The position numbers and the translations under genes are program-made. From Klebsiella phage KP13-26, in sequence record OP617743.1: a stretch of DNA of 64,000 nt, one strand, 5' to 3'. Under the pieces are notes generated by a model. The model was not told where the DNA came from. It worked only from the letters and a program-made list of their open reading frames with translations, and made no database searches. How positions within the stretch are numbered: the first letter of the stretch is position 1; every line of letters begins with the position of its first letter. Shown piece by piece: positions 13,553 to 15,637 of this stretch.

Positions 13553-15637
13553 TTGGCAAGGAAACCAGTTAAGACAAACTTAGCAAATATTGAGATTGAA
13601 GTAAAAGCTCAACCTGGTAAACAAACATTAGCAATGGATTTAATGCCAGAGGTAATGATTTATGGTGGTGCTGCGGGATGCGTTACAGCAGAGACAGAAT
13701 ATTTAACACCATCAGGATGGAAGAGAATTGATCAATACTCAGGAGAAGATATTTATCAATACAATCCAAGAAACAGGAAACTAGAGCTAGTTAGTCCATA
13801 CTTTGTAGAGTATGATACAAAAGATAACTTATATAGAATAACAAATGGTGTGGGTTTATTCCAAGAACTTAGTATGGAACACAGGTTTGTATTCTATAAA
13901 AAGAAAAAATCTAAAAAACATTTTGAGATTTTAGTTGGAGATCTTATTGCATTGCAGCAAGCAGGAGAACCACTTAGAGGGTATGTAGAAAATCCTTTCG
14001 GTAAAAGAGTACCATTTAATATCTCAGGTAAAACTAACACTTATCTAAAAATGCACGAGGTGATGACAAGTGATGATAAAAAATATTGTTTTGAAACTCC
14101 AAGCAGTTATGTTGTCTTTAGACGTGGCGATCATATCTTCGTTACTGGGAATAGTGGCAAGTCTCGTCTACTCCTACTGAAAGCTTTAAAATATGCTTGC
14201 AAAGACCCACTGTTCGGTGGAATCCTATTCCGTAAAAATACAACAGCTCTACGTAAGCCTGGTGGGTTATTTACAGAAGCTAAAAAGCTATATCTGAAAC
14301 TTCAGCCACATGTTCGTGAACAAGCTATGGAGATGGAGTTCAGAGCTACCGGAGGTGGAACATTAAAATTCGACCACTTAGAAAATGATAACGTAACAGC
14401 GGAAACTAACCACCAGGGTACACAATACAGTATGGTAGGTTTCGACGAGTTAACGCATTTTACCCAATATGAAATGCTTTACCTTCTTGGTCGTTTACGT
14501 TCTGAGTCTGCAACATCTTTTATGCTATGCACCTGTAACCCAGATGCAGATAGTTGGGTTATTAATTGGGTACTACCTTACCTGGATGAAGCAGGGTTCC
14601 CACGCGATGACATGTGTGGTAAACAACTATATTTTCTTATTGTAAATGATGAACCGGTATTTGCAGAAGACCCAGAAGAACTAAAGGAAAAGTATCCTGA
14701 AAACTGCTTCATGGAAAACCCAAATACAGGCGAAATAGTTACTATCGAACCGCAGAGCTTTGTATTTATCGGCGGAACTATATTTGATAATCCAGAGCTT
14801 ATACGTCTTAATCCTAAATATCTAGCCTCTTTGAAAGCACAAACCGCAGTGAAAAGAGCGCAGCTCTTAGATGGGTGTTGGTTTGCAAGAGCACAGGAAG
14901 AAAGTTTCTTTAATAGAGAATGGTTGCATGTAATTAAATATTCAGATGTTCCGAATAATATGAAATATATGCGAGCATGGGATAAAGCTGTATCTGTTCC
15001 AACAGAATCATATCGTTATCCAGACTATACCACGTCTGTAAAAATGGGCAAAGATACTGATGGTAATGTCTATATCTTCGGAGATTATGATTACGATGCA
15101 GTAGATGAGAAAAGTAAAATCTTTGGTAGATTTAGAAGATTACCGGGTGAACGAGATAATTTGATTCTTAATCAATGTAAAATTGATGGGGATGAGGTTA
15201 TTGTAGTTCTTCCTAAAGACCCATCTGGTGCAGGTTTGATTGAATATACAGAATCTGCTAAGAAGCTTATTTCTGAAGGTTTCATTGTAAAACCTGATGC
15301 AATGCCAGGGAACAAAAAGAAACTACAGCGTTTTATGCCTTTTAGTAGTGCTTGTCAAAATGGTTTTGTATATATTGTTGAAGACTCTTTCCCAAATAAA
15401 GAAACTTTAGATCACTTTTATAAAGAATTAGAATCTTTCAATGGAGAGAGGTCTACTGCAACACTCAAAGACGATATCCCGGATGCTGCGGCATCTTGTT
15501 TTAATACACTGATGAAAGAGGCTGTATTCAAGGCTGTAGCCATTCCTACGCCACTAGGAGCTACCACAGGATATGGTAAAATGTCTAGTGGAAGTAGGGC
15601 ATCTTTTGGTCAACCTTATAAAATAAGATCAAGATAA
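13553..15637 (+). CDS. terminase large subunit containing a mini-intein in the Walker A P-loop
   Basis: Walker A is split, GGAAG | intein | SGKS. Downstream ATPase and nuclease-type segments. Position immediately 5' of the portal gene. Confidence 0.7.
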   Translation: MARKPVKTNLANIEIEVKAQPGKQTLAMDLMPEVMIYGGAAGCVTAETEYLTPSGWKRIDQYSGEDIYQYNPRNRKLELVSPYFVEYDTKDNLYRITNGVGLFQELSMEHRFVFYKKKKSKKHFEILVGDLIALQQAGEPLRGYVENPFGKRVPFNISGKTNTYLKMHEVMTSDDKKYCFETPSSYVVFRRGDHIFVTGNSGKSRLLLLKALKYACKDPLFGGILFRKNTTALRKPGGLFTEAKKLYLKLQPHVREQAMEMEFRATGGGTLKFDHLENDNVTAETNHQGTQYSMVGFDELTHFTQYEMLYLLGRLRSESATSFMLCTCNPDADSWVINWVLPYLDEAGFPRDDMCGKQLYFLIVNDEPVFAEDPEELKEKYPENCFMENPNTGEIVTIEPQSFVFIGGTIFDNPELIRLNPKYLASLKAQTAVKRAQLLDGCWFARAQEESFFNREWLHVIKYSDVPNNMKYMRAWDKAVSVPTESYRYPDYTTSVKMGKDTDGNVYIFGDYDYDAVDEKSKIFGRFRRLPGERDNLILNQCKIDGDEVIVVLPKDPSGAGLIEYTESAKKLISEGFIVKPDAMPGNKKKLQRFMPFSSACQNGFVYIVEDSFPNKETLDHFYKELESFNGERSTATLKDDIPDAAASCFNTLMKEAVFKAVAIPTPLGATTGYGKMSSGSRASFGQPYKIRSR
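13679..14152 (+). mobile_element. mini-intein (158 aa, no endonuclease domain) inside the terminase
   Basis: Starts with Cys (CVTAETEYL, block A). Block B-like SMEHRF. Block F-like DHIFVTGN. Ends in Asn followed by Ser. Removing it restores the canonical P-loop GGAAGSGKS. Confidence 0.6.

Follow-up and report, generated by a model that had tools for sequence, protein, structure and literature searches.

The large terminase (TerL) of Klebsiella phage KP13-26 (OP617743.1) carries within its Walker A loop what is, with a probability of roughly 85 %, a mini-intein that splices in cis, has shed its homing endonuclease, and passes vertically with the TerL gene of phi92-like phages (Stephanstirmvirinae). 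The element, located at 13679-14152 on the plus strand of the 64,000-nt stretch analysed here (the window), comprises 158 aa with a predicted mass of 18.5 kDa and adopts a HINT fold without an endonuclease domain. Judged from its sequence, it is a real and probably functional intein, which almost certainly must splice out before the DNA-packaging motor works. Although it has gone without annotation, it is one of a large and already known kind of element, and its active-site signature lies between two known mechanistic classes.

An in-frame insert splits the Walker A loop of TerL

In the ORF list, the precursor gene (13553-15637, plus strand) comprises 694 codons and a stop, and its predicted product has 79.0 kDa. 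By reading of the sequence, a ribosome-binding site AGGAGG (13543-13548, plus strand) lies 4 nt 5' of the TTG start, and the phi92 orthologue is annotated with an identical AGGAGG site. The flanks of the insert were identified as terminase by Pfam Terminase_6N (PF03237; E=1.8e-17, 64 bits), and TerL matched PHROG 979 at E=1e-213; TIGR01630 gave a weak match to the C-terminal part, and PF17289 is found in TerL homologues. Furthermore, at the nucleotide level the KP13-26 gene is 97-98% identical to genes annotated as terminase in Klebsiella phages KP2025 and FKP3. The protein has the layout of a Terminase_6-type large terminase, namely an N-terminal ATPase with Walker A and B motifs and a C-terminal RNase H-like nuclease. 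Its N-extein (13553-13678, plus strand, 42 aa) ends in MIYGGAAG, the first half of Walker A, and its C-extein (14153-15634, plus strand, 494 aa) begins with Ser+1 (14153-14155), which is at once the Ser of the motif's second half, SGKS. Walker B (MVGFDE, 14432-14449, plus strand) is situated in the C-extein, with the nuclease domain downstream.

The insert consists of exactly 158 in-frame codons with zero stops, corresponding to TerL residues 43 (Cys) to 200 (Asn), and sits between Gly42 and the Walker A Ser (GGAAG/SGKS, the slash marking the junction). The junction codons are Cys TGC at 13679-13681, Asn AAT at 14150-14152, and Ser AGT at 14153-14155, followed by GKS. Deletion of the insert in silico yielded MIYGGAAGSGKSRLL, the same sequence as in insert-free orthologues, and the joined flanks read ...MPEVMIYGGAAGSGKSRLLL... 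An initial sequence-only reading had proposed that excision restores GGAAGSGKS, and had suggested intein-free orthologues for comparison. Both points held, as the motif [IF]YGG[AS]AGSGK[ST] runs unbroken through about 60 homologues that lack the insert and measure 480-530 aa. The loop is also contiguous in Klebsiella phage vB_KpM_FBKp34, a member of the same subfamily (Stephanstirmvirinae), which lacks the insert (LIYGGAAGSGKSRL) and is identical at 34/51 nt across the site. Among homologues recovered by junction pattern, all 39 insert-bearing ones displayed GG[AGS]AG/C...GN/SGKS, with inserts of 146, 158-159, 246, or 301-328 aa; since the pattern recurs in every one of them, the insert is not a chance feature. 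Thus defined, it has the hallmarks of an intein: an in-frame insertion into a conserved host motif whose removal restores the host sequence, and orthologues that do without it. The masses computed for the precursor (79.0 kDa), the spliced terminase (536 aa, 60.5 kDa), and the free intein (18.5 kDa) are close to the ~79 and ~62 kDa estimated earlier for precursor and product.

The four splicing blocks and their unusual residues

Block A (CVTAETEYLTPSGW, 13679-13720, plus strand) opens with Cys1 (13679-13681), the predicted first nucleophile, and contains Gly13 and Trp14, which are invariant among TerL alleles. Block B (GLFQELSMEHRFVF, 13853-13894, plus strand) contributes Ser65 (B:7), His68 (B:10), and Phe70 (B:12). 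Block F (DDKKYCFETPSSYVVFRR, 14072-14125, plus strand), whose sequence is KKYCFETPSSYVVF, provides Cys137 (14087-14089) at F:4 and Val146 at F:13, where His is usual. Block G (HIFVTGN, 14132-14152, plus strand) ends with Thr156 (G:5), the penultimate Gly157 (G:6), and Asn158 (G:7). The sequence-only reading had recognised the starting Cys, the SMEH of block B, the penultimate Gly, the terminal Asn, and Ser at +1, all correctly. It erred in taking DHIFVTGN for block F, and hence in concluding that block G was missing and the C-terminal junction non-canonical: with block F located upstream and DHIFVTGN reassigned as block G (HIFVTGN/S), all four splicing blocks are present, a normal block F preceding block G.

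The residues expected of a class 1 intein are largely in place, with a nucleophile at residue 1 (Cys1), Ser65 and His68 at the block B positions B:7 (Thr/Ser) and B:10 (His), and a C-terminal Asn (Asn158) followed by Ser from among the Cys, Ser, or Thr used at +1. The His residues at G:6 and F:13, which are usual but not obligatory, are replaced by Gly157 and Val146, and F:4 is occupied by Cys instead of Asp. As this unusual combination is common to the whole family, it does not represent a defect of the KP13-26 copy. In an alignment of 35 TerL alleles with identities down to 25%, C1, H68, C137, G157, and N158 are invariant, as are D132, K135, and Y136.

We extended the comparison with a family profile whose matches at E<=0.001 number about 12,000 representative proteins, and verified the signature in the strongest matches only (181 proteins at E<=1e-30, holding 184 domains). 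There, Cys1 occurs in 182/184 domains, His at B:10 in 184/184, Ser or Thr at B:7 in 173/184, and Cys at F:4 in 181/184. Block G is similarly uniform (Thr in 141 and Ser in 30 at G:5, Gly in 180 at G:6, Asn in all 184 at G:7), and the +1 residue is Ser in 107, Cys in 48, and Thr in 29. Position B:12 holds Val, Ile, Met, Phe, or Leu, with Trp in only 2/184.

A large family overlooked by profile libraries

On this sequence evidence the intein is one of a very large family, recognisable by the signature C1...H...YC(F:4)...[TS]GN/[STC], mostly residing in P-loops. Members were found at equally precise junctions elsewhere, including a primase/helicase P-loop (GSASG/C...GN/TGKST), the DIG/CGM site of RtcB, and NrdF. 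Such precision in unrelated hosts is the behaviour of a mobile intein and unlike that of a host-specific domain; together with the conserved catalytic residues and the insert-free orthologues, it supports the original proposal of a 158-aa mini-intein splitting the Walker A motif of TerL.

Standard searches gave little indication of this kinship. The comparison with intein HMMs that had been suggested as a check did not identify the element, as Pfam Intein_splicing (PF14890) scored 13.6 bits, below its cut-off of 35.8, and an NCBIfam search of TerL returned no intein match; larger alleles of the family are likewise missed by Pfam. With the insert alone as query, phmmer against PDB sequences produced only noise, and a word-indexed homologue search recovered five fragments. 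Single-sequence searches being uninformative, the kinship became apparent only through profiles and structure prediction. The element is nonetheless present, in an essential gene, in at least 133 deposited phage genomes, including phi92, itself studied in depth, and phages considered for therapy. The database records annotate no intein at this TerL site, their only labels being "terminase large subunit" or "N-terminal endonuclease domain". In a coliphage collection curated with care, a phage carrying the element is credited with zero inteins, and according to a 2024 paper none had been reported from coliphages. Since the family is invisible to both Pfam and NCBIfam, intein censuses based on those libraries undercount phage inteins.

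Probable endonuclease loss and co-divergence with TerL

The predicted model consists of a HINT core and a short linker, as befits a mini-intein of 158 aa. The linker (13895-14062, plus strand) is Lys-rich, adds extra strands and one helix to the HINT core, and coincides in the TerL allele alignment with the site that holds a LAGLIDADG-fold endonuclease in larger alleles at the same TerL position. The central domain of those larger alleles had no sequence match in the PDB, and its LAGLIDADG identity came from a fold search. Besides the TerL frame itself, no ORF of at least 50 aa overlaps 13679-14152 on either strand. MAFFT placed the linker segment VGDLIALQQAG under the LAGLIDADG helix of the larger alleles. 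We do not claim the linker as an endonuclease vestige: it obtained no score against the family endonuclease-domain profile (161 domains), while the best of 500 shuffled sequences reached 2.5 bits. The model, the ORF list, and the endonuclease profile thus agree with the earlier statement that an endonuclease domain is absent.

The dN/dS ratio of the intein (0.07-0.08) is low, compared with 0.04-0.06 for the exteins, and its amino-acid identity tracks that of the extein (87 vs 89%, and 73 vs 69%), which argues that the intein co-diverged with TerL and was kept functional. The difference in GC content (33.3% in the intein vs 38.4% in the exteins) was discarded as a signal of foreign origin, being small and confounded by the Lys-rich linker. 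Other kinds of insertion were also considered and set aside: a group I or II intron, as no Rfam family was detected in the terminase gene and the frame is open throughout, and a transposon-like insertion, as flanking direct repeats are absent. Separately, a 23-nt inverted repeat (83%) pairs 13494-13516 with 14180-14202; it lies off the junctions and was treated as chance.

Relation to known inteins

The sole strong PDB match of the family profile (E=2.4e-11) was the class 3 split intein AceL NrdHF (PDB 6ZGQ; PMC7891396), which is of probable phage origin. It is the N-terminal half of the family profile that carries this sequence link, as neither the C-terminal 41 residues alone nor one Vibrio-phage allele alone aligned convincingly to 6zgq. 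The two inteins have identical block B numbering (S65, H68, hydrophobic 70), and both possess Cys at F:4 and Thr at G:5 and lack His at F:13 and G:6. They differ in that AceL NrdHF starts with Ala1 and uses an M-C-T triplet, whereas the KP13-26 intein has an invariant Cys1; in that a GIY-YIG endonuclease gene interrupts the naturally split AceL NrdHF, whereas the KP13-26 intein is contiguous; and in their host sites, the RNR beta subunit and the terminase P-loop, respectively. AceL NrdHF has 146 aa compared with 158 aa here, and Vibrio-phage TerL alleles also have 146 aa.

Canonical class 3 (WCT) inteins such as MP-Be DnaB and Msm DnaBi1 (PMC2807308, PMC6195587) have in common with the KP13-26 intein Cys at F:4, Thr at G:5, and Ser or Thr at +1, as well as a preference for helicase-like ATPase P-loops, terminases included. 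DnaBi1 is, moreover, itself an endonuclease-less P-loop mini-intein, and its +1 Ser likewise forms part of the P-loop. In contrast, canonical members lack a nucleophile at residue 1 and carry Trp at B:12 and, as a rule, His at G:6, where the KP13-26 intein has Cys1, Phe70, and Gly157, and its fold is no nearer canonical class 3 than class 1. We therefore rejected canonical class 3 membership on account of residue 1 and B:12, Trp at B:12 being absent also from AceL NrdHF, whose class 3 route is proven. WCT inteins with Ser1 or Cys1 still take the class 3 route, as Tori and Perler reportedly observed in 2011. With a class 1 Cys1, a block F Cys and G:5 Thr typical of class 3, and a class 3 intein as closest solved relative, the KP13-26 element has a mixed signature, and it lacks both assisting His residues.

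Published definitions would file it, by Cys1 and Cys at F:4, under class 1 inteins with Cys F:4 (PMC3196547; PMC4031507), a group in which phage inteins of helicase-like P-loop proteins have been put forward as the type of progenitor that gave rise to class 3 (same sources). That group is polyphyletic and defined by one residue, whereas the present family is tighter (C1, GW, SxxH, DGxKYCF, [TS]GN) and, unlike the definition, includes members without Cys1. Inteins in the TerL Walker A loop have also been described in mycobacteriophages (TerL1-a and TerL1-b), and splicing was demonstrated for those tested, including TerL1-b (PMC5050341). Those terminases are of the Terminase_1 type, whereas that of KP13-26 is Terminase_6; their "classic" site lies between Lys and Thr (GK/T), whereas G/SGKS is three residues upstream; and they mostly carry endonucleases, which the KP13-26 intein does not. 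Phage inteins frequently have another residue in place of the penultimate His (PMC5050341), and a penultimate Gly is also found in Ceu ClpP, Pno RPA2, Cre RPB2, and mycobacteriophage Bethlehem gp51, all in unrelated hosts; in Bethlehem gp51, splicing goes to completion and becomes slower when this Gly is exchanged for His (PMC5050341; PMC1635734).

Proposed splicing route and alternatives

Splicing itself, and the choice of cysteine as acyl carrier, are inferences. In the route we favour, the 79-kDa precursor would be translated with the HINT domain between Gly42 and the Walker A Ser, leaving the ATP-binding loop presumably unformed. Upon folding of the intein, Ser65 and His68 of block B would strain the Gly42-Cys1 peptide bond, and Cys1 would perform an N-to-S acyl shift, the class 1 first step suggested by its invariance. 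The N-extein would then be transferred to the Ser+1 hydroxyl, either directly or aided by the invariant Cys137, which occupies the usual class 1 Asp position. Asn158 would cyclise without a penultimate His to free the 18.5-kDa intein, and an O-to-N shift would yield the 60.5-kDa terminase with an intact GGAAGSGKS loop, recognisable by the tryptic junction peptide ...VMIYGGAAGSGK. Against this route stand the sub-threshold Pfam score and the empty NCBIfam search, the absence of both His residues usual for Asn cyclisation (F:13 and G:6), and the use of Ser+1, a weaker nucleophile than Cys. A literature search found no experimental evidence of splicing for this TerL or any orthologue. In favour of the route, an intein in the RadA P-loop reportedly prevents ATPase activity for as long as it is present (PMC6195587).

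Possibly, though we hold it to be a minority view, the same product arises by other chemistry, in which Cys137 is an obligate acyl carrier, either through a class 3 attack with Cys1 dispensable or through a relay from Cys1 via Cys137 to Ser+1. Conservation is equally strong for Cys at F:4 and Cys1 (181 vs 182 of 184), Thr/Ser at G:5 and Ser/Thr at +1 match the class 3 signature (PMC2807308), and AceL NrdHF, the closest solved relative by sequence and fold, was experimentally found to splice by the class 3 route. Moreover, natural members without a nucleophile at residue 1 (Ala in Corynebacterium phage Darwin NrdF and in P0245, Pro in P0160) all keep Cys at F:4, and one RNR site harbours both P0245 (Ala1, Cys F:4) and P0253 (Cys1, Gly F:4). 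However, a near-invariant Cys1 would be unexpected if it were dispensable, and Trp B:12, important in canonical class 3, is replaced by Phe. Furthermore, Cys is the second commonest F:4 residue in ordinary class 1 inteins (PMC4031507), and class 1 with Cys F:4 is a recognised polyphyletic group (PMC3196547).

[quoted passage not shown] If so, AceL NrdHF, Darwin NrdF, and P0245 would have become class 3 merely by loss of Cys1, and class 3 would have arisen more than once, diverging from phage P-loop inteins. This would contradict a single origin as well as the cysteine-protease convergence proposed in PMC7664689, and the terminase would gain a two-cysteine redox switch.

A switch of this kind underlies a further alternative, which we consider unlikely: splicing could be conditional, a Cys1-Cys137 disulfide formed under oxidising conditions giving an inactive precursor and making packaging depend on redox conditions in the host cell during infection. 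The active site does hold two invariant cysteines at catalytic positions, a disulfide involving the F:4 Cys reversibly blocks the P-loop mini-intein DnaBi1 (PMC6195587), and purifying selection has kept the intein across the whole phage lineage long after endonuclease loss. Yet the difficulty of deleting it precisely from an essential P-loop explains this retention equally well, and the bacterial cytoplasm is reducing.

That the insert is instead a degenerate, non-splicing HINT-derived domain, retained in the mature terminase or undergoing cleavage only, is very improbable: the sub-threshold Pfam score, the missing His residues at G:6 and F:13, and the "N-terminal endonuclease domain" label of some GenBank records would fit it, but the residues for all four splicing steps are invariant, Walker A is split at Gly/SGKS in the register where family members split other P-loop NTPases, the loop is contiguous in insert-free orthologues, cleavage without ligation would cut an essential P-loop, and the insert contains neither an endonuclease fold nor an ORF.

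Significance

As a small cis-splicing intein with Ser at +1 and a Gly-Asn terminus, native to phages of E. coli and Klebsiella, the element could serve protein engineering. Its family, in turn, would offer a compact, E. coli-compatible system for asking how class 3 splicing evolved.

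Results and discussion

An intein at the P-loop of the large terminase

The large terminase (TerL) is encoded on the plus strand at 13553-15637 by an ORF of 694 codons with a TTG start 4 nt downstream of AGGAGG, and it is identified as such by Pfam Terminase_6N (E=1.8e-17) and PHROG 979 (E=1e-213). Its residues 43-200 (13679-14152, plus strand) form an insert, located to the base in the sequence-only reading, which starts with Cys, ends with Gly-Asn and is followed by Ser-Gly-Lys-Ser; its removal yields MIYGGAAGSGKSRLL. Two groups, insert-free and insert-bearing, are seen among the 120 homologues retrieved with the full TerL protein. 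In about 60 of them, roughly 480-530 aa long, the loop [IF]YGG[AS]AGSGK[ST] is contiguous, while GG[AGS]AG/C...GN/SGKS (slashes mark splice junctions) was read in all 39 longer homologues recovered by the junction pattern. Inserts measure 146 aa (Vibrio phage PWH3a-P1 type), 158-159 aa (the window clade), 246 aa or 301-328 aa. Within the Stephanstirmvirinae, the classification of all related phage records examined, Klebsiella phage vB_KpM_FBKp34 has an insert-free TerL of 514 aa reading LIYGGAAGSGKSRL. Its protein shares 62-64% identity with phi92-type C-exteins, and around the insertion site 34 of 51 nt match. FBKp34 and the roughly 60 insert-free homologues show that the insert is not simply a conserved part of all orthologues; had it been, this would have spoken against an intein. 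Such presence or absence at a single exact position of TerL is what first marks out an intein.

Standard libraries hardly recognized the insert, as Pfam Intein_splicing reached 13.6 bits (cut-off 35.8) and an NCBIfam search gave no match. For the AlphaFold2 model (pLDDT 95.2), computed from 35 alleles, the best 50 Foldseek PDB matches were without exception inteins, bacterial intein-like or hedgehog autoprocessing domains (50/50). A profile of the TerL alleles also matched, by sequence, AceL NrdHF, a class 3 split intein (PDB 6ZGQ, PMC7891396), at E=2.4e-11. By its modelled structure the insert is unambiguously an intein, one that sequence libraries barely detect.

The terminase genes of Klebsiella phages KP2025, FKP3 and phi1_175008 share 96-98% DNA identity with that of the window, and phi92 and some 70 further phages about 81%. 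The FKP3 gene (PP895363.1), at 98% identity, has nt 861-900 replaced by a 1.34-kb segment with an HNH endonuclease ORF (1161-2499, corresponding to window 14413-14452) and is annotated as two CDS, the break falling immediately ahead of Walker B (MVGFDE). This segment, absent from the window terminase gene, probably represents an intron or else the insertion of a free-standing homing endonuclease; phage PD114 likewise gave a two-piece match. A 23-nt inverted repeat (83% complementary) at 13494-13516, in the upstream spanin gene, and 14180-14202, 28 nt past the intein, lies off the splice junctions and is probably due to chance. An 8-kb cluster that precedes the lysis and terminase genes holds 23 Rfam tRNA matches (4207-12045, plus strand; three near the gathering score), more than the 14 tRNAs given for the related BASEL phages Bas60-62.

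Splicing motifs and family signature

Although the 35 alleles are only 25-35% identical, C1, G13, W14, H68, D132, K135, Y136, C137, G157 and N158 are invariant. With blocks numbered after PMC2807308, block A reads CVTAETEYLTPSGW, block B ...LSMEHRF (S65 = B:7, H68 = B:10, F70 = B:12), block F DDKKYCFETPSSYVVF (C137 = F:4, V146 = F:13) and block G HIFVTGN/S (T156 = G:5, G157 = G:6, N158 = G:7, Ser = G:8). The segment DHIFVTGN, previously taken for block F, is thus the very block G that had been reported missing, and the C-terminal junction, described as non-canonical, is so in its chemistry but not in its structure. All 158-159-aa alleles share His153, at block G position 2, which the 146-aa and endonuclease-bearing alleles do not conserve; it could conceivably make up for the absent penultimate His.

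Among 1.84 billion representative proteins, 12,137 matched the family profile at E≤0.001, an upper bound on family size as near-limit matches likely include other kinds of intein, and 181 did so at E≤1e-30. Among 184 full-length domains from the best 150 proteins, residue 1 is Cys in 182 (Pro in P0160, Ala in P0245), B:10 is always His and G:7 always Asn, F:4 is Cys in 181 and G:6 Gly in 180. B:12 is more variable (V90, I29, M28, F16, L14, W2), G:5 is Thr in 141 and Ser in 30, and the first C-extein residue (+1) is Ser (107), Cys (48) or Thr (29). Domains scoring at least 100 bits directly precede [STC]GK[ST] or a close variant in 89 of 116 cases, and lengths below 200 aa are confined to 10 of the 184. 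By these sequence criteria the window intein is, mini size aside, an ordinary member of a large, tightly defined and P-loop-specialising family.

Loss of the endonuclease and inheritance

Besides TerL, no ORF of at least 50 aa lies within the insert on either strand, and the linker (residues 73-128) obtained no score with a profile of 161 endonuclease domains, bearing out its description as a mini-intein without homing endonuclease. Neither Pfam nor PDB sequence search recognized the central domain that the large TerL alleles carry. Its fold prediction is nonetheless confident (pLDDT 86.5), with the best matches exclusively among LAGLIDADG-fold proteins: the TliVMA and PI-SceI intein endonucleases, the free-standing I-DmoI and I-Tsp061I, and the LAGLIDADG domain of WhiA. 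Likewise, in the large members P0030, P0126 and P0145, Pfam recognized neither the splicing domain nor the ~200-aa central domain, whose identity as a LAGLIDADG endonuclease was revealed by fold search only. Since larger alleles carry this domain and the window intein has neither nested ORF nor scoring linker, the latter is a mini-intein that has lost its endonuclease. Compared with phi92, phAPEC8 and 05F01, amino acid identity is 87, 85 and 73% for the intein and 89, 87 and 69% for the exteins, with dN/dS of 0.07-0.08 versus 0.04-0.06 (approximate, dS being near saturation). Inheritance since endonuclease loss has been vertical, and the endonuclease-less domain is under strong purifying selection, as expected if splicing failure were lethal.

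A probable route of splicing

Having Cys1, the window intein belongs to class 1 by published definitions, and the invariance of this residue argues for its use. In the route we favour, an N-S acyl shift at Cys1, with S65 and H68 straining the scissile bond, would be followed by transfer to Ser+1, cyclisation of Asn158 without His, and an O-N shift. Gly-Asn termini are on record, and one such intein splices better than its own Gly-to-His mutant (PMC5050341, PMC1635734). The rest of the signature is that of class 3 inteins, which insert into P-loops of helicase-like ATPases and have Cys F:4, Thr G:5 and Ser/Thr +1 (PMC2807308). Among characterised inteins, AceL NrdHF is the nearest relative; it has Ala1, S65, H68, M70, C124, T144 and N146 and lacks His at F:13 or G:6, and experiments identified Cys124 as its branch point (PMC7891396). 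That Cys137 serves as covalent acyl carrier in the window intein would fit this signature and the retention of Cys F:4 in family members without a residue-1 nucleophile, but given invariant Cys1 we consider it rather unlikely. At one RNR site (RDE/.../[CS][VI]HGYY), P0245 (523-829) combines Ala1, Cys F:4 and Cys+1, and P0253 (419-651) Cys1, Gly F:4 and Ser+1, a complementary loss of candidate nucleophiles that is anecdotal as a single pair. By analogy with DnaBi1 (PMC6195587), a redox switch between the active-site residues Cys1 and Cys137 is conceivable, if improbable.

Other host proteins and annotation

A tblastn search located the N-terminal half of the insert in unrelated phages, within other host proteins, and the genes concerned carry the element at exact junctions. 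The primase/helicase of Pseudomonas phage KIL1 (GSASG/CVDKDTEYLTPQGW...DGFKYCF...FITGN/TGKST) is interrupted in a different P-loop in the same register as TerL; further cases are RtcB of Bacillus phage BCP8-2 (DIG/C...KYCF...AITGN/CGM), TerL of Avunavirus Av-05 (GGAAG/C...VVTGN/SGKS) and NrdF of Corynebacterium phage Darwin (FME/AFSGDTELLTPEGW...VYCVQV...VISGN/CVHARSYS). We infer the Darwin boundary, with Ala as first residue, from the restored ExxH iron-ligand motif and the alignment to block A. The metagenomic terminase P0126 (855 aa) contains two family inteins (residues 38-362 and 461-798), as does P0127, one at the TerL P-loop site and the other just past Walker B (GFDELTHY/C...SGN/TEYQ). 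Very large proteins (P0129, of 2602 aa, P0149, P0177 and P0248) carry several full-length inteins each, with up to five matched stretches and three full-length domains, separated by as few as four extein residues in P0129 (...WSGN/SGYQ/CHDE...), two in P0149 and six in P0177.

Terminase P-loop inteins are well known in actinobacteriophages (PMC5050341). The TerL intein described here has orthologues in at least 133 phage records but, judging from the records examined and the BASEL table, seems to have escaped notice. In those records the gene is labelled terminase, hypothetical protein or 'large terminase with N-terminal endonuclease domain', and for EmilieFrey/Bas61, whose TerL has the insert at 87% identity, the intein count in the BASEL supplementary table is 0. 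Two records of ~146-151 kb, 'Campylobacter phage A145/B15' (MG065645.1, MG065650.1; host Campylobacter jejuni), contain the intein at 84-87% identity, resembling that of E. coli phi92-type phages, which indicates either a doubtful host assignment or an unexpectedly wide host range of the lineage. A profile made for this family would bring to light many phage inteins that so far lack annotation, and the main value of the finding lies in annotation and in a tractable family for testing how class 3 splicing evolved.
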